Shown here: positions 7,131 to 62,324 of the stretch, piece after piece | Numbering within the stretch: position 1 is the first letter of the stretch | Layout: each line of letters starts with the position of its first letter | Source of the DNA: Octopus vulgaris | Taxonomy: Eukaryota | NCBI GenBank assembly: GCA_951406725.2 | Contig: OX597814.1 | Location: forward strand, 31,062,001-31,126,000 | Direction: 5' to 3' | DNA: 64,000 nt | Translations under genes and position numbers: made by a program | The notes under the pieces: model-generated | Databases searched by the model: none | The model's input: only the letters and a program-made list of their open reading frames with translations | What the model was told of the DNA's origin: nothing

Positions 7131-7169
<39 letters not shown>

Positions 7170-7180
7170 TGTATATATAC

Positions 7181-7423
7181 ATACGTGTATTCGTGTGTAT
7201 GAGACTTTGGTTCTGTTGTTGCCTGCCTTTATATTATTGCTTCAATTACGTTATGCAGACACACATGCACATTATGCACATACACACTCACATACAGTCA
7301 TGTACATATATTCACCCGAACGCTATGTTATATATATATATATATATATAACGTAATTGTAGCAATAATATGAAGGCAGGCAACAACAGAACCAAAATCT
7401 CATATACACACGAATACACGTAT
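7181..7423. repeat. Inverted repeat (fold-back), ~75-bp arms
   Basis: 7181-7254 (atacgtgtattcgtgtgtatgagactttggttctgttgttgcctgcc...ttacgttat) is the near reverse complement of 7348-7423. Confidence 0.92.
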
Positions 7424-7440
7424 TCAAATTACATACATAT

Positions 7441-7588
7441 AGGCGCTGGAGTGGCTGTGTGGTAAGTAGCTTGCTTACCAACCATATGGTTCCGGGCATC
7501 TTGGGCAAGTGACTTCTACTATAGCCTCGGGTCGACCAAAGCCTTGTGAGTGGATTGGGTAGACGGAAAGTGAAAGAAGCCCATCGTA

Positions 7589-8289: not shown

Positions 8290-8755
8290 TAGTTTTTTTA
8301 TCCCCATTTAATAGTGGATGTAATGTTAGAACACAGAATACTGTGATATTTCCCAAGAGAGACCTCACAAATGGACTTGTGGTGCATATAAACACTTATG
8401 TTTATATCGCTATGGGAAGATAATCATCCGCCATCACCACTGTATCTACCAGATCATGTGATTTCGGCGTTCCTTGGCTAGCCCATTTGTAATAAAAGTG
8501 CTTCATTAGGTACTGAGATTCTATGTATATCGCTAGTGGAGGAATCACTGCTACCTTTAGCTTTTTGGTACGAAAGATGTACGAAAACACTTGATCTGGT
8601 AGTCCCTGCGGAGATGGAGGATGATAACCTCCCACTAGCGATATAAACACAATTGCATATATGCTCTGAAAATCCATATGAGAGGTTTTCCCATGGTAAT
8701 TATCGCAATATATACTGTGTTCTAACCCCCCCTTTGAAGTGGGGATAAATATAAC
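8290..8755. mobile_element. Old fold-back element (~170-bp diverged arms) with a degenerate hammerhead motif
   Basis: 8290-8460 aligns with the reverse complement of 8587-8755 (tatcccca, gttagaacacag, gtttatatcgcta, ctaccagatca). Minus strand 8513-8447 reads tac-CTAATGA-agca...cgcc-GAAA-tcacatga-TC-tggta. Confidence 0.65.
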
Positions 8756-16222: not shown

Positions 16223-16270
<48 letters not shown>

Positions 16271-16275
<5 letters not shown>

Positions 16276-16495
16276 ATTGGCAGGGAAAGACTGCTAGGTA
16301 GTCGGCCGTATGCTAGAAATAGATCATCAACGATCAAATAATTCTGTTTTTTATATAAATTTTCATCTGTCCTGCCCGCCAAATTTGGTTCTGGTGTTCG
16401 CTGAATTTTTTCCTCTAGAGAATTTTCTTTGTAGTTTGATCGTTGATGATCTATTTCTAGCATACGGCCTAGCAGTCTTGCCCTGCCAATATACA
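16271..16495. repeat. Inverted repeat, ~61-68-bp arms
   Basis: 16271-16338 versus 16435-16495 (ggccgtatgctagaaatagatcatcaacgatcaaa / tttgatcgttgatgatctatttctagcatacggcc). Confidence 0.93.
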
Positions 16496-16699
16496 CATAT
16501 ATTAGAATGTTCTCTGACTTCTCAGATTTTTTGTATGCTAGACTACTGGTTTTAAATTGATATTAAAATTAATATTAATTTATCTCCCTCATTATTTATA
16601 TATATACACATTTAGAAGGTTGAAAAGGAACACAAGAGTTGATGTATATGGAAAAATGTCACGGTAGAAAATGTTAAAATAATTTTATGAAAAACATTT

Positions 16700-16735
16700 C
16701 AGTACCAGTTTCAGCCATTGAGACTTTTTCAACTG
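16700..16735 (-). ncRNA. Minimal type I hammerhead motif, U3-A8 variant
   Basis: Minus strand: cag-TTGAAAA-agtc-tcaat-ggct-GAAA-ctgg-TA-ctg; ~90-nt tail ending at a TA-rich tract near 16600. Confidence 0.62.
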
Positions 16736-16810
16736 TAAGTATGGAAAACAAGTAAATTTGGGAAAAATTAAAAGAAAAGTTTTTAAAAAGAATATTTGCA
16801 TAGTATTCAA

Positions 16811-16980
16811 ATATAAGGGGCATTTTCCTTGTTTCTGCCTGTGTCTGTCTCTCTTGTTTACTCTTGTGAGAAATGCGTGGCTTTGGAGAGTCTTAACTCT
16901 TCCTTCTAGCAAACAGGTTCATATTAAGAGTAAACAAGAGAGACAGAAACAGGCAGAAACAAGGCAAAGGCCCCTTGTAT
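16811..16980. repeat. Inverted repeat, 55-bp arms, loop copied from the 15821-16123 locus
   Basis: 16811-16865 versus 16926-16980; the loop aaatgcgtggctttggagagtcttaactcttccttctagcaaacaggttcatatt matches the pre-SINE sequence at 15821. Confidence 0.92.
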
Positions 16981-21592: not shown

Positions 21593-21999
21593 ATTTTCAT
21601 CGTTCTGTGCACAATCAAGATCTTGTGCAACTGAAAACTGAGTACCCTTTTGGACGGGTGGAAGTAGTTTTTGACTCAAACTTGGCAGACAAGCGTCTCG
21701 TACCCAAAACTTCAGTGATAATGGACTGAACTGAAACGAAACTAATCTTAGCTAACATTGAGAAGTGGATCATTGGAGTTTGAAAGTAAAGCATGGAAAA
21801 CAATTAAATTGTGGAAAAGTTAAATGAAATGATTTTTTTAAATATCTCCATAGTTTTCAAATGCAAATGGCATTTTCCGTTTTTCTCTCTGTCTTTATCT
21901 CTCTTTTACTCGCGTGAATTCTAGCTGGTAGTGGTATTTAATATAAATTCGTGTTTTTGATTGTTTAAGCAACAGTAGTAATTGAGAAAGGAGGCAGCA

Positions 22000-22055
22000 A
22001 AGAAGAAGAAGAAGAAGAAGAAGAAGAAGAAGAAGAAGAAGAAGAAGAAGAAGAA
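22000..22055. repeat. (AAG)n repeat
   Basis: Directly visible. Confidence 0.97.
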
Positions 22056-22269
22056 AGAAAAATGCGGAAGTGGTACGACAGTAGCAGAAGGTTGGTGGAA
22101 TCCTCTTAAATGGTCAAGTGATATAAAAGTGAACCGTTGTGATTGTAATAGTAGTGATTGGAATTGTTCTAAATAATTTCATGAATAGTGACTGTACTGA
22201 ATATATATCGTTTTTAATATTTGCGTGGATATTATTCTAAGGCCCTTGTAATAGTGTCATTTGTGGTGG

Positions 22270-23905
22270 ACGCATTCAAAAGGGGTTTCTATTTTGGGAT
22301 AAAGTATGACTCTTTACTAATGCGTTAACACTAGGTTGCATCGTCCTTGAATTGATAGGGGGGAAATTCTGAAGCTGGGTTCGCAAATGTCGATGAGTTC
22401 GCTGAATGCTATTTTTTTTTCTGTATGATCCGAATTTTGATCTGGAATCTATGCAGAACCATCCTTTGACGTAGACTGTTTTTGGTTTGGCCTATGTATT
22501 GCTCTTGACACCGAAAGCATTTTAGTGTGTATATCAGGTTCTCCGAAGCACATGTTAAGCTGCTTTTGACTGTGAAACGTTGTCTCTGTTTGAAGGAGAA
22601 CTCTGATCCCTCAATTAAATTGACGCATATCCCACATTTGGGGCTTCCGCATTTTTTTACTGACGGCTTCAGTGTTGTCGAGTGTATTCGAGCTTGTGTT
22701 AGGAGACTTTTCATAGATTTGGGCTATCTTTTGCTCTTTATGATGGTGTGCATTTCGAGGATTAAATTCGTTCTGTGGTTCCTTTTTTGTAGGGTAATGT
22801 TCTGGAGGATGGTGTCGAAGGCTTCATTGTGAAGAGGGTTGTTTGTGGAAATGTATGGTAGGGCTTTTGGTTGTAAATCCTTCTTCAATTTGGGATGTCT
22901 GAGTTCGTGGTAGTTGAACTGTAGGACACGTAGAAAGCATATATCAGTTAGTGATGATGGGTAGTTCCTGGTGATGAGTGTATCTTTTAGTTCATATAGT
23001 CGTGTGTCCCTGGTGCTTGTATTAGAAAGTATAGTACAGATCCTTTTTGCCAGGTTGAAAGGCATATTCATTCTGGTGTATCTGGGATGGCAGGAGTTGA
23101 ACGGTAAATATTGCTTGGAGTCCGTGGGCTTATAGTATATATCTGTTTCTATTTCGTTGTTAGATTTCTTAATGAGGATGTTGAGAAATGGAAGGTTTAA
23201 CATGAATTTTAGATTTCTCATTATTTTCTGCTGACTGTAGTGTTGGCCCTTTTAATAATATGTTCTGTCTTCTAATATGGATAGTACAAGAGTTATATAG
23301 TATACCGTGTCCATTAAGACAACTGCACTCCCTTTATCATCCTTTTGATTGTTAATGTTTTGTCTTCTTTTAATTTGTTCAGCTCAGCCCATTCTTTTTT
23401 ACTGAAGTTTGGCCTGTGTTTTTGTTTGTGTATATGTTGATATGGGTAATTCGAGATGTCTTCACAGAAATGATCAAGAGTTTTGTTCTTACTTTTGAAG
23501 GGGTGTAGTTACTCCTATTTCGGACTAACGATTCATCCTCGTATTTGTCGTATAGCTCCTCAGCGAGTTGTAATTTTCTACAGAATTCCGCGACGTCTTC
23601 TTTCATTTCGTTGTAATTGAGGCGTTGGGGATGGGTGTAAGCTTGAGCCCTCTGGAAAGTACGTTGATTTGGGTTGCTTTCTAGGTCTCTGCGAGTTAGA
23701 TTGATGATTTTTATCACTTTGGCTCCTCCTGTCTGTTTGGTGCTATCTCGTGTCTCTGTGTTTGCGTATTGGCTTTAAAAACTGATTGAGGTATTTGGGA
23801 CAGTAGCTGTTTTGTTGTTGTTCCTTGTTGTTGTGGAGTGCCCTGTTGTGATGTATGGTGCTTGTTCTTGAAAAGGGTATTGAAAGGTGTGTTCCTATAT
23901 CCCAT
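22270..23905 (-). pseudogene. Penelope-like element (PLE) remnant: N-terminal region, RT thumb and GIY-YIG; RT core deleted
   Basis: DKGSAVVLMD (PLE/TERT-like N-terminal motif); LPFLNILIKK...TDIYYKPTDSKQYLPFNSCHP (RT C-terminus/thumb); CGSPKCGIC...CASENLIYTLKCFRCQEQYIGQTKNSLRQRMVLH (GIY-YIG); several frameshifts. Confidence 0.9.
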
Positions 23906-24528
23906 GTTCGGATGTGGTGCTTATATGAATCGGTACAATATTGAAAAATATATTATATATTCTCAGTAAGGTTCGTTCTGGCAAAATCGCTTTTTAAATG
24001 AGTTGTTTTCTAATTATAATTCTTTCTAGTATAGGCACAAGGTCTGACATTTTAGGGGAAGGGTCTAGTCGGTGATATCGAGCCCAGTATTCAAGTGTTT
24101 CTTATATTATCGTTCCCCGAAAGAATGTAATGTAAAGTTGATCTTGGCGGGATTTGAACTCAGAAGGTAAGGACGAATGAAATGCCGCTAAGCCTCTCGT
24201 CGGTTCGAGCTATCGCGTCTTCCAAATTGATACCTTGTTCTCTCGTTATAATGTGAGGGAATTACTTTACTTCCTCGTTAAAGTATCCGGTCTATTACTG
24301 AAATGTATATACTGTAGCAATGGAAATACGTGATACACACAGGCAGAACATTTCAATCCATTTACTCATTTGGAGAATATTTTTCCCGTTTGGTCTTATG
24401 GTAGAGGATGGCTGAAATAAATTCCCTCACTAAGCCAAAATAATATATTTTAATATTTCTTTAATTCTTTCTGTATATTTTTGTATTTAATTCTTTTGAT
24501 TGCTTTAGTCTTCCCGACAAAGGCTTTG

Positions 24529-24570
24529 CTGGAGCCTCACTTCAAGCATATATTTGAAGTGAGGCTCCAG
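24529..24570. repeat. Perfect 17-bp hairpin (duplicated at 29091-29132)
   Basis: ctggagcctcacttcaa-gcatatat-ttgaagtgaggctccag. Confidence 0.95.
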
Positions 24571-25359
24571 AACTTTATTTAAAAGCCAATCATATCATTA
24601 CATGCTTTCATCAAGTATACAAAATACACTCATCAACTAAGGTAACTTATGTTGAAATTTTAAAATTAATTAAATAATTAATTTAATATTAAAGGAAAAT
24701 CACATGCTTAAGCAAATTATAGATGCTGACAATGGCTTCAAGAAAGAATGTTATAAAAGATGCAGTAAAAGATAAACCCATATCTCCAAGTTGATGCGTT
24801 GATGCAGTAACAACTGTGCGATTAATATCGATGGAATGTCAGTGGACATTGTAGCTTAAAGCACACCACATAATATGCTTGTCAAAATATATTTCATGGT
24901 CGTGTACTTTTAGCATAAGTCTTGCTTGAGAGGGAAATCTTAACACCAATTACTTATTGGGTGACACTATTGTATTGCACAGATTAATGAACTGTTGATC
25001 AACAGGACGTTGCAACAACAGTAAACATGCAAATCTGTAAAAGCCTAAACAAAATCTTTTTCACTACTTAATTATATGCTTTTATGTTGTAGTCTGTAAA
25101 ATGCAAGGGGCAATTTAAACAACAGCATCTTTCATCAAAATGCTTTTCTTTTGTCAAAGTTTGAATCACAGGTGTTTGGATATATATATATATAAGTCAT
25201 TCTATACAAAATGGCTACAAACATAATAAATGTATATGTACGTGTGTGTATGTGTGTGTGCGTTTATTACACACACACACACACACACATCTTAAGATAG
25301 CAAGCTAGCAGAATCATTAGCATGCCGGGCAAAATGTTAGCTGTGGTATTTTTCCTCGA

Positions 25360-25947
25360 CAGAAATTTACTCAGGGAAGGACCGGTGCGCACCATCTGTA
25401 TGTTGAGTCTAGCATTGTCGGGTGCACACTAACCAGCTGTCCTATCAACAACATTAAAACGTGTTCTAGGGCCTATGTGGTATATGAAATAGTCTGCAGT
25501 AAATGTTGGGCATACTACATAGAGGGCACCAGCAGAAAATTGCACAACCGTATAAAAGAACACATGCGCACGGTCATTTCAATAATGAATCTCCTAAAGA
25601 AATGCTAAACCTAGAATTTTAAAGGTTTCACCAGAGCAACCCTACGCAACAGGGGCGATCTCAGAATCATGGAGGTCCTCTTTAAAAATAGAGGCCAGCC
25701 ACTCACAACAGGAAGGAACTACACAATGCAGACTGGTTGCTATAGCAACACCAGTCTGCGCATGTCACCCTCCTCCTTCCTCCCCCACTCATCTGAGCAA
25801 CGACTTTTCGAACTATCGCTTTTCCTAAATATCCTTAAGAAGGAGTCATTAACCGAAGTTTAAGCAAATTTATTTTGCTTTCTTTTCCTTTTATAGTTTA
25901 ATTTCTACCTTCTCGCATTGTTCCAGCCTTACACAACAAATCTCTTT

Positions 25948-27754: not shown

Positions 27755-32424
<4,670 letters not shown>

Positions 32425-35167: not shown

Positions 35168-35292
35168 TATGAAATTAAGTTAAATATCTAAGGAACAGGA
35201 AATCATGCAATGGACTATATTCTCTTACAGCTGTAAGCGCATGAAGTTGATTGCATAATATCCTGTTCCTTTGTCATTTATTTAATTTCATA
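35168..35292. repeat. Fold-back centred on cttacagctgtaag
   Basis: gaaattaagttaaatatctaaggaacaggaaatcatgcaat pairs imperfectly with attgcataatatcctgttcctttgtcatttatttaatttc. Confidence 0.8.
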
Positions 35293-37292: not shown

Positions 37293-37364
37293 AATCCCAT
37301 ACACGAATTTCGCTATTAATGCTCAAATAAATCAATTTGGCGTCCGTAGCTCATCAGTGGGATC
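37293..37364 (-). ncRNA. Type I hammerhead ribozyme motif with canonical core
   Basis: Minus strand: gatccca-CTGATGA-gcta[31 nt]tagc-GAAA-ttcgtg-TA-tgggatt; ~150-nt tail to a microsatellite at ~37143. Confidence 0.82.
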
Positions 37365-37409
37365 GTTAAAGAATGCATAATTATGTAGCTTTAATACGTA
37401 CCGAAAACA

Positions 37410-40030: not shown

Positions 40031-40050
40031 AAAAAATACATATATATATA

Positions 40051-40377
40051 TAATGTAAAGTATAGAAGCCATCTTAACATGGCTAAACACATAGGGGAGG
40101 GGTGTTACTGTAGCTCTATAGCCCCAGGAGATCGTCGTCTCCAGCTGGCTTTAGACACCATTTCAGTGCCCTTGAAGTATTTGCAAAGGGAGGCCATCCC
40201 TTTCTCGCAAGCCTGAGTGATACGCTCGACTAGTTTCGGCATTATTGTCCCTTATCAACGGGCGGTAACCACCGGGTAACACACCCTCCCCTATGTGGTT
40301 AGCCATATTAAAATGGCTTCTATACTTTACATTATCGAGCGATTACTGTTTACATCTCATTCTGAGATTTAATAATG

Positions 40378-40379
<2 letters not shown>
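40051..40379 (-). mobile_element. Fold-back mini-element with hammerhead (same family as 54683-55180)
   Basis: Arms 40051-40108 / 40276-40334; flanked by (TA)n on both sides. Confidence 0.85.
40223..40264 (-). ncRNA. Type I hammerhead motif, U3-A8 variant
   Basis: Minus strand: cgcccg-TTGATAA-ggga-caataa-tgcc-GAAA-ctag-TC-gagcg. Confidence 0.7.
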
Positions 40380-48887: not shown

Positions 48888-48900
48888 TATGTCTATATAT

Positions 48901-49164
48901 TAAAGTTTATTTGCCAACAGAATGTGGCGGTCCCATAAAGAACGATGTTACTGTTCTTTAAGCCGCAGGAAAACATCTTTCCCAGCTAGCTATCGACTCA
49001 CATTCTCATGTGAGGCTGGATATAGGAGCGATGACCTCCCTTGAAAACACTATACGGATACAGGCTGTGTGTCGATAGCCAGCTGGAAAAGATGTTTTCC
49101 TGGAGCTTAAACAGTAGCATTGTCCTGTATAGGATCGCCACATTCTGTTGGCAAATAAACTTTA
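48901..49164. repeat. Inverted repeat, ~100-bp arms, loop duplicated at 49311-49374
   Basis: taaagtttatttgccaacagaatgtggcg... versus ...cgccacattctgttggcaaataaacttta; ggagcgatgacctcccttgaaaaca occurs in the loop and again at 49330. Confidence 0.92.
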
Positions 49165-49392
49165 CTATTCGGTATTATTACCGTTTATATCGAGCAAAGA
49201 TTTTTAAAACAAATTTCATCTTTACGAGATGAGCGACTATGTGTCACTTAGTGTTTGCGAGTGGATAAGCTTTCATCAACAGCCATTAAATGTATCATGG
49301 TCTATGAGTATCATGTAAGGCTGGAGATGGGAGCGATGACCTCCCTTGAAAACATTTTACGGACACAGACTGAGAGATTTAAAGCAATTTGT

Positions 49393-53350: not shown

Positions 53351-53656
53351 ACTAGTTTTCTCTTTCCCACTCAGTAGAAATATGTGTACAATGACACATA
53401 CATAAGCTCACGCAAGGATGTACACATACAAACACACACACAGACATGCCTGCGCCAGAAGTAACTTAGATTGTCTGTTGAGGGATGCGGTGCCACGAAA
53501 TTTGAAGTATTGTCCCTTTTACCTAGTTTTACCTTCTCATATTGAGCTATGTAATCTATCGCTTCTCGGTGAATCAACATAAAAAGTGTGCGTGCATGTG
53601 ATTCCGAGTGTGCATATATATATATATAATTTAAAATTGAATAGAAGGTCTGAAAA

Positions 53657-53702
53657 CCACCTGATGAATGTCCTTAGAAGTGACAAGAAACAATTGTAGT
53701 GG
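53657..53702 (+). ncRNA. Type I hammerhead ribozyme motif with canonical core
   Basis: ccac-CTGATGA-a-tgtc-cttagaagt-gaca-a-GAAA-caattg-TA-gtgg; ~180-nt tail ends at (TA)n at 53883. Confidence 0.8.
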
Positions 53703-53878
53703 ATAACTTAATTTTATTTAATTTATATAAAATTTTTTATGTACTGGATTAAGTCTTTCTTTGTTTGATTTGCATAATAGTGGTTTTATCTCTAATTAAT
53801 ATTATATAATATTTTACTATAAAATTGGATTCAATCCTAAATCTGATTTTTCCCTGTAAATTTGGATTTATTCCCTAA

Positions 53879-54343: not shown

Positions 54344-54614
54344 AAATAAGGGTGAGAAATTGGATATTAATTTAATTAAATTAACATCAATTTAACACCA
54401 GTGCTCTAGCATATAAAATCCGAAGGTTCAGTAAGCTGTGTTATATACAAATGAGAGGGATGACGACTATGTGGACAACCCTTAACCAGAAGTAGATCCG
54501 CTAAGGTCTTACCACAAAGAAATGTTCTCAAGACACGTTTCTTAGTGGTAAGACCATACCGGATATACTTCTAGCATAAGGGTTGTCCACATAGTGGTCA
54601 TCCCTCTCATTTGT
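54344..54614. mobile_element. Fold-back element related to the 9027 family
   Basis: Starts aataagggtgagaaattggatattaatttaat like 9034; arms 54447-54525 / 54535-54614. Confidence 0.8.
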
Positions 54615-54682: not shown

Positions 54683-54684
<2 letters not shown>

Positions 54685-55180
54685 CATTATTAAATCTCAG
54701 AATGTGATTGAAACAGTAATCGCTCGATAATGTAAAGTATAGAAGCCATCTTAACATGGCTAACCACATAGGGGAGGGGTGTTACTGTAGCTTTATAGCC
54801 CCAGGAGATCGTCGTCTCCAGCTGGCTTTAGACACCATTTCAGTGCCCTTGAAGTATTTGCAAAGGGAGGCCATCCCTTCCTCACTTCGAAATCAGTGGC
54901 AGACGTCACTAGAAAAACTCTTATATATTTGCAAGGAGGCCTTCTCTTTCATCACGACCTGGTGGTTACCGCCCGTTCACAAGGGACAAAAATCCCGAAA
55001 CTAGTCCGAGCGTATCACTCAGGCTTGCGAGGAAGGGATGGCCTCCCTTTGCAAATACTTCAAGGGCAATGAAATGGTGTCTAAAGCCAGCCGGAGACGA
55101 CGATCTCCTGGGGCTATAAAGCTACAGTAACACCCCTCCCTATGTGGTTAGCCATGTTAAGATGGCTTCTATACTTTATA
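54683..55180 (+). mobile_element. Fold-back mini-element, ~155-bp near-identical arms, hammerhead in the loop
   Basis: 54731-54885 versus 55027-55180; flanked by (TA)n. Confidence 0.9.
54970..55012 (+). ncRNA. Type I hammerhead motif, U3-A8 variant with G5C lesion
   Basis: cgcccg-TTCACAA-ggga-caaaaa-tccc-GAAA-ctag-TC-cgagcg. Confidence 0.65.
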
Positions 55181-55638
55181 TATATATAAGTTATATATGT
55201 GCATACTCATATGTGCACACTCACTCACATATATATCTTTGCACTGAAACCAAATCCTTGCTTTATAAACACTAGGCGTTTGATATTATTGTGATTCGAA
55301 TTAGTGGGTAGCTTCTAATTCATTCATAGTAATTTGAGTTATTTCGCATCAAACGTTAAATTGTTATGGTAAAACTAGCTATGGTGCACAATTGCGATAG
55401 AAATTGTAAAGTGTAAATAGAAAATTCTAGATAAAACCAGTTGTCTCCGTGCCAATGTGAAACAAAACTAACGCAGAAAGTCTTGCATATTTTGCTTTGA
55501 CATTAAATAGGTAAGAAAAGTAACATGTTTTCCTAGTAAACATGATAAATTTGTCTCAAATTCTGCCAGCGGCTTCGTTTGATATTAATTCTCAAACAGT
55601 TTGTGTTACATGTAAACATTTTTCTAGTACCTCTCCTC

Positions 55639-58761: not shown

Positions 58762-58806
<45 letters not shown>

Positions 58807-58820
58807 CTGATTATATATAC

Positions 58821-59005
58821 ATATTAACCAAAAAGAAGCAGTCAGAACTGTGGATAATTCTTTATTGGCGCTTTCGTTCGATTAACCGAACTCTTCAAGA
58901 AGAATTAAAACCAATTTTTAATGTTTCTTGGAGAGTTCGGATAAACGAACGAAAGCGCTAATAAAGAATTATCCAAAATTCTGATTGCCTACTTTTGCTT
59001 AATAT
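58821..59005. mobile_element. Fold-back with a hammerhead-like motif in each arm
   Basis: Plus strand 58928-58966: TTGGAGA-gttcg-gataaa-cgaac-GAAA-gcgc-TA-ataaag. Minus strand 58898-58861: TTGAAGA-gttcg-gttaat-cgaac-GAAA-gcgc-CA-ataaa. Confidence 0.75.
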
Positions 59006-59563
59006 ACAATATCTGTACACCCCTTTAAACACTATACACACATATGTATGTATATGTATATACGTGTGTGTTAGTTTCATTTTATGTTCAGTTATAATAA
59101 AGACAATTTTAGATTAATCTGATGGGTTATCATATACTTTTGTAGAGTACAAATTTATTATTGTTAAACAAGAATATTATTGACACTGACTTATGTAGCT
59201 GTGTGAATATGATCGTGCGTGCATACGTATGTGTTTGTGTGTGCTCGCTCGCCTGTGTATGCGCGTATTATAAGTATGATTTCGAAAAATCTAGTCTGTA
59301 AAGCATCAGCTATTGTGAAAACATTATTTTACTTATTTGTAGTGTAATCGGAGTTGATAGAATTCGCTCGAAGGAACATGTGGAGGAGAAAGTTTAGAGC
59401 TTACGGTCAATGAACACTTTTATAAATCACACACACAAAGTTATATGTGTATATATATACATGTATATATATGCATGTATGTATGTATGTATGTATATGT
59501 ATGTAAATGCATATATATATGTATGTGTGTGTGAGTCTGTATATGTATATTTTAATGTATGTA

Positions 59564-61235: not shown

Positions 61236-61670
61236 TCGCTTCTACAGCACATGTTCCCGGGTTCAATCCTCCTGCGTGGGGCCTTGGATAGGTGTCGGAG
61301 TGACCAAAGTCTTGTGAGTTGATTTGGGAGGCGGAAACTGAAAGTGTGTGTCACTTGGTGTCTGTTGTGTTTGTCTCGCTTGACAATCAGTGTTTATGTC
61401 CCCGTAACATAGCAGTTCGGCCTAAGAGAACGATAGAATAATTACTAGGCTTAAAATAGAAGCGCTGTCTGTGGTCGATTTCTTTTACTAAAGGCGATGC
61501 TCCAGCATGACCACAATCAAATGACTGCGTCAAGTAAAAGAATAAATGAATATTTATATGATCCTACAAACATAGATATAAGCTTTGATATACACACGCA
61601 CACACTCCCATACACATCTCTGTCTGTCTGTCTGTATGTTTCTCTTTCTCTGTCTCTGTCTATCTTTATC

Positions 61671-61709
<39 letters not shown>

Positions 61710-62011
61710 TCATCTAAACCTCTAAGCCCTGCGAATATTCGTACTGTTTATTTATATGCCATTAGAGCAATTATTTTCAAGCTGTATGTATATTTCGCTA
61801 TCTTATTACAATGAATCTCAACTTTACATATATATTAATCATAATCTTTTTTGATACTATTTGTACGTAAAATATGTCGCTTTATGTCCATAGACTGTTT
61901 ATTTACATTTTCATATACACACACACACACACACACATACACACATACACACACACAAACACTCTCTCACACACACACACACACACATACACACATACAC
62001 ACACACAAACA

Positions 62012-62050
<39 letters not shown>

Positions 62051-62057
62051 TTACTCA

Positions 62058-62324
62058 TTTACTCTTTTACTTGTTTCAGTCATTTGACTATGGCCATGCT
62101 GGAGCACCGCCTTTAGTCGAGCAAATCGACACCAGGACTTATTCTTCGTAAGCATAGTACTTATTCTATCGGTCTCTTTTGCCGAACCGCTAAGTTATGG
62201 AGATGTAAACACACCAGCATCGGCTGTCAAGCGATTTTGAGGGTGGGGGACAAACACAGACATACAAACATATACGCACACACGCACACACACACACATA
62301 CACACACACGCATACACACATACC

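Follow-up and report, generated by a model that had tools for sequence, protein, structure and literature searches.

Natural hammerhead cores in which the C3-G8 pair has covaried to U3-A8 are known from several examples (Perreault et al. 2011, PMC3088659), and a descriptor for the U3-A8 form has given about 1,300 matches, mostly single, in Schistosoma mansoni (Cervera & De la Peña 2014, PMC4209133). Figure S3 of the latter study includes the cores UUGAUAA and UUGAAAA, as well as a Penelope-linked U3·G8 core from Saccoglossus. The hammerheads of metazoan Penelope-like elements are mostly minimal: in the motifs published in that paper, helix II has 7-8 bp, a base is added after A9, helix III is slight or absent, and loop 1 is ill-defined. 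Penelope-like elements themselves are described with an inverted 5'-truncated copy, a one-sided tail of 30-40 bp and microsatellite targets (PMC8557442), and the one-sided tail has been ascribed to two reverse-transcription start sites (PMC11167929). Retrozymes bear a full-size motif and occur in tandem (PMC7229834).

The window, i.e., the whole stretch of 64,000 nucleotides analysed here, is AT-rich, animal-type DNA rich in microsatellites, and holds two copies, A and B, of an element carrying a hammerhead with U3 and A8. These copies are like the Penelope hammerheads of PMC4209133 in their U3-A8 core, palindromic helix III and neighbouring motifs on opposite strands, but depart from the minimal Penelope motif, their helix II having 4 bp and their helix III 2 bp, with no base added after A9 and with a helix I bulge like that of HH9. 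They are like the full-size Schistosoma Sm-alpha-type or HH9 (RF02275) hammerheads and the non-LTR retrozymes (PMC7229834) in their helix lengths (6/4/short palindromic), contact loops and non-coding unit, but differ from them in the core U3, an Rfam score far under the cut-off, a non-tandem arrangement, and inverted arms with a tail. In the open literature searched for a cephalopod Penelope hammerhead and for U3 core strings, no description of this family was found. The earlier note had implied that U3-A8 was in itself new, which does not hold, as animal genomes have been scanned with descriptors for it from 2014 onwards (PMC4209133); the core adds little, having been reported from nature in 2011 and from Penelope-like elements in 2014. 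The point of interest left is an apparent split between U·G and U-A inside one family, a polymorphism that the available text of Perreault et al. (PMC3088659), which has the same core covariation, does not report. Our main reading, with a probability of about 0.7, is that A and B are insertions, now decayed, of short Penelope-like ends that form an abundant family, in which U3·G8 is the common core and U3-A8 belongs to a smaller subfamily.

Anatomy and private lesions of the two copies

The features of the two copies, and of a second motif in the window, are as follows.

40052..40378, minus strand: copy A of the element, made up of an inverted 3' arm, hammerhead and body, with (TA)n on the flanks
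40276..40378, plus strand: inverted copy of the element 3' end in copy A
40216..40273, minus strand: hammerhead of copy A, with distal helix I, GUUAC bulge, helix I, core, helix II, GAAA and helix III
40258-40252, minus strand: core UUGAUAA of copy A
40258, 40254, 40253, 40237 and 40229/40228, minus strand: U3, N7, A8, G12 and U16.1/C17 of copy A
40253, minus strand: position 8, A in copy A and G in 60-70% of contig depth in four of four sequencing runs
40052..40215, minus strand: body of copy A, 3' of the hammerhead, without a long frame and with minority alleles common to copy B
54684..55181, plus strand: copy B of the element, made up of a 200-nt inverted arm with a 46-nt tail, a 75-nt spacer, hammerhead and body, with (TA)n flanks
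54961..55019, plus strand: hammerhead of copy B, with helices I and II intact and a GUC site ending at 55006
54976-54982, plus strand: core UUCACAA of copy B, with U3 at 54976, G5C at 54978 and A8 at 54981
16697..16738, minus strand: hammerhead-like motif of another family (the 16700 family), core UUGAAAA, U3 at 16732, flanks unrelated to A and B

Copies A and B are 93% identical over 245 nt, and in each three helices surround the core with the open ends in helix I, which is the layout of a type I hammerhead. With 6 bp in helix I, 4 bp in helix II and a palindromic helix III of 2 bp, this layout is full-size. Two features are absent from the earlier description of the motif: a C×A mismatch at the third pair of helix I in both copies, and the continuation of helix I, via a GUUAC/UA bulge, into a distal helix. 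Loop II reads CAA(U/A)AA and, together with the helix I bulge, aligns to the Rfam HH9 model; copy A scores 21.3 bits (E=0.002, 111-nt scan), under the gathering cut-off of 52, in an alignment that spans model positions 1-77 and includes the helix I bulge of full-size hammerheads. Rfam gives no hammerhead match for copy B or the 16732 motif, and none appears among the 150 of 344 matches listed for the whole window, nearly all of which are microRNA models on microsatellites.

Each copy carries its own damage. In copy A a G×G mismatch occupies helix II at 40240 and the cleavage junction is one base short, whereas copy B breaks the invariant core through G5C. Contigs of 4 of 24 sequencing runs were aligned to copy A at 80% likeness; these runs come from four organisms (labelled A, B, C and D), and their material is presumed to be DNA or is of unstated kind. 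The resulting difference table is considered through 40 of its 52 rows, the other 12 including one A>G row (at least 2%) per run. At 40240, all of the depth (100%) in each of the four runs shows the pairing base. G5C stays below 2% of depth, the sole C>G place in each run being 40240. At the junction, all six spanning pieces among the 32 listed have a gap, single-base insertions are listed there, and an insertion like that of copy B is listed in all four runs (1-2 contigs each). All three lesions are thus private to A and B, as supported by the contigs of four runs.

Sequence and contigs bear out much of what had been proposed, namely that both copies are type I hammerheads with U3 and A8 and private damage each, and that A and B, by complementing each other, yield a full type I hammerhead whose cleavage site is GUC. 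It also stands that a strict CUGANGA (C3-G8) pattern misses both, and that their flanks are unrelated to the 16700 family, to which neither A nor B has a blastn match. A strict U3-A8 descriptor matches only 16732 in the window, with no match in 100 shuffles. A relaxed descriptor matches A and B only, with two matches in 300 local shuffles, a significance that is overstated because the descriptor was written after the motif had been seen. The loci returned by pattern scans elsewhere (0 metagenome contigs, 0 and 1 genome contigs, 14 viral) were rejected as chance, all 15 being without helix II/GAAA anatomy or flank similarity.

Other hammerhead-like motifs in the window include one at 53652-53712 (plus strand, C3 at 53661), whose core is the standard CUGAUGA and whose helix III is the palindrome ACAAUUGU, and one at about 37295-37366 (minus strand, C3 at 37357), with a CUGAUGA core, a long helix II and a 7-bp helix I.

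Conservation and predicted cleavage of the motif

For an intact motif, cleavage would fall after GUC and take place mainly in a dimer joined through the palindrome ACUAGU, perhaps with help from a protein of the element. Palindromic helix III with dimer cleavage is the described pattern for such motifs (PMC4209133; PMC6765202). In copy A the helix III sequence CUAG, which follows GAAA, lies within this palindrome; ACUAGU allows no normal hairpin closure and pairs with a second copy at -4.8 kcal/mol. In RNA folding, the lowest-energy structure of copy A is not the hammerhead, and monomeric copy B forms both helix I and helix II (probability 0.78-1.0 in 13 of the 14 pairs). Judging from their sequences, A and B are probably both inert, for each has a lesion of its own and 14.6 kb separates them, on opposite strands.

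For the family as a whole, the motif could be a catalytically dead relic, the element amplifying without cleavage, which we hold to be possible although unlikely. In one type III construct, single and double mutants at positions 3 and 8 are low in activity, the G-C swap excepted (PMC9901934), and the helix I C×A mismatch is without repair among the rows listed. One Penelope hammerhead required protein in order to cut, and in vitro insertion could proceed without the hammerhead (PMC11167929), so that drift of the core would be allowed. Against a dead relic, no variant at U4, G5, A6, A9 or GAAA is found among the difference rows listed, and the invariant U4 G5 A6, A9, G12 A13 A14, A15.1-U16.1 and H17 are kept at the family level among those rows. 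The junction insertions listed likewise all preserve an NUH site and pairing, although both kinds of conservation may only reflect recent amplification. The other family changes listed inside the motif are at N7 (C in 71-78% of depth), in loop II, and in helix II, where a G-C pair becomes G·U (26-33%).

Probable Penelope-like ends and their surroundings

Both copies start with an inverted copy of the element 3' end, and this inverted arm extends past the stop of the sense arm by 43 nt in A and 46 nt in B. In copy A, 40276-40335 pairs with 40050-40108, and 40336-40378 is the unpaired 43-nt tail. Each copy shows the inverted 5'-truncated copy with one-sided tail that is described for Penelope-like elements, the tails being slightly longer than the 30-40 bp given in PMC8557442, and each is inserted in AT-rich, microsatellite DNA, with (TA)n on both sides. 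The family would then consist of Penelope pseudo-LTR stubs or of a non-autonomous derivative. Its RNA may owe its copying and insertion to a Penelope reverse transcriptase/GIY-YIG protein, in trans or from a longer parent. Such a protein would start copying at internal sites, insert into AT-rich DNA, and leave the arm and the tail.

No reverse transcriptase or GIY-YIG/endonuclease frame is linked to A or B in their surroundings in the window, and the Penelope link of their family is accordingly drawn from architecture only. The full-size motif of A and B counts against this link, metazoan Penelope motifs being mostly minimal. A coding role of the body was considered and rejected: the only frame after the motif, of 30 codons, is not kept in the relative at 49027. 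That relative, at 48897-49380, is a distant one, matching the body at about 71% over 82-87 nt; it shares the fold-back layout and also includes a second, partial copy, and no hammerhead core was found in it.

Elsewhere in the window, 21789-23774 (minus strand) is a broken Penelope-like coding remnant. Its part at 22409-23774 has a GIY-YIG match at E=0.015, under the cut-off, and Atlas neighbours with HTH_animal at 0.96-0.97, a recognition below its threshold; the Penelope-like fragments of the window have no match in NCBIfam or PDB searches. Some 500 nt downstream of the GIY-YIG-like frame, the stretch 21789-21917 has 77% identity to the sequence that precedes the 16732 motif on its 5' side, but does not keep the core. 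The region downstream of these coding remnants resembles the 16700 family, not that of A and B. Identical translated frames at 23379-25608 and 27941-30169, 4,561-4,562 nt apart, represent either a recent tandem duplication or an assembly duplicate. Eight more local inverted repeats (125-465 nt) are possibly fold-back stubs of other elements, and that at 58766-59062 includes a core string resembling U3·G8, the helices of which are doubtful.

7162-7441, 8297-8749, 16262-16502, 16811-16980, 35168-35292, 54447-54614, 58766-59062 and 61390-62212: local inverted repeats

A and B might also be solo fold-back derivatives of a non-LTR retrozyme family, i.e., of units of 150-450 bp that repeat in tandem, bear a type I hammerhead of full size and have circular RNA intermediates. 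The full-size type I motif with its helix I bulge and CAA(U/A)AA loop II is of the retrozyme type (PMC7229834); a coding frame is absent, and the distance from hammerhead to tail end is about 270 nt. Neither copy in the window is tandem, both being solo with inverted arms, no unit-length head-to-tail joint occurs among the 15 of 18 contig joints listed, and the word 'inverted' is absent from the main text of PMC7229834. We therefore regard this origin as unlikely, although a 2026 preprint argues that retrozymes derive from Penelope ends and are often monomers, so that this origin overlaps with the Penelope-like reading that we prefer.

Loose contig ends on 40051-40379 point to two or more further tail types in the family, one of which joins terminal sequence directly at 40115/40276 and occurs in all four runs.

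History of the 3-8 pair

In both copies of the window the 3-8 pair is a Watson-Crick U-A, and in 60-70% of the family depth it is probably U·G. G8 at 40253 makes up 63, 70, 65 and 60% of depth in the four runs (13, 13, 7 and 7 contigs), and no variant row for position 3, i.e., no C3, is found among the 40 of 52 difference rows listed in these runs. Depth is flat over 40249-40259 (79,567 against 79,573 at 40253 in run X1), so a C3 linked to G8 would match the support of the G8 row, and weaker rows were listed; the common form of the family is therefore very probably U3·G8, with position 3 read from the absence of a C3 row.

At 40134, 40159, 40160 and 40165 the allele common to A and B is the rarer one, with a maximum of 3-31% of depth. 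What depth remains for A8 (29,078; 14,488; 1,172; 1,649 in the four runs) is of the same order as that remaining for the A/B allele at 40159 (42,794; 24,664; 787; 1,383). U3-A8 thus looks like the mark of one smaller subfamily that contains A and B, whose common ancestor had U3-A8; contig depth is not copy number, and the linkage of position 8 to the body alleles is drawn from depths alone. As G8 lies within a CpG, some A8 may be decay, but CpG decay as the sole source of A8 is disfavoured, because only 2 of the 11 CpGs of copy A touch variant rows among the 40 of 52 listed. The 3-8 pair has probably passed from C3-G8 to U3·G8, still the common form, and then to U3-A8 in the smaller subfamily, the direction of change being unrooted.

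The earlier note had taken U3-A8 to be ancestral in the family, a claim that is not supported and that arose because two copies from one minor subfamily were taken for the whole. That U3-A8 was the ancestral working core, G8 being a later A-to-G change that amplified, has on its side that both window copies carry it, that U3 seems fixed among the rows listed, and that the pair is Watson-Crick and stated to be active in vitro (PMC3088659, citing Przybilski & Hammann 2007). This is very unlikely given the share of G8 in four of four runs and the minority lineage of A and B at four body positions; moreover, hammerheads in general carry G8, and its retention would need no extra change.

Most improbable is that the G8 copies are ordinary C3-G8 hammerheads, with only the A/B subfamily fully compensated to U3-A8: one A>G row per run does lie outside those listed and most of the family depth stops short of the core (in X1 about 80,000 there against 325,000 at 40159, only part of the family aligning over the core), but a linked C3 would equal the G8 row in depth and in its 7-13 contigs, weaker rows (3-5 contigs, or a share of at most 8%) were among those listed, and copy B supplies another candidate for the unlisted row at 40143.

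With U3·G8 as the probable common core, hammerhead pattern searches should permit U3 with either purine at position 8. A further, rather doubtful proposal is that U3·G8 is abundant and U3-A8 derived within one full-size, contact-looped family whose wobble form cleaves as a dimer or with an element protein; if true, it would provide a natural, testable series for the crossing of a supposedly strict 3-8 pair in evolution. Should U3·G8 prove to be the main form, with U3-A8 as a derived subfamily, the family would offer natural sequences, matched to each other, with which to study whether cleavage is indispensable to Penelope-borne hammerheads.
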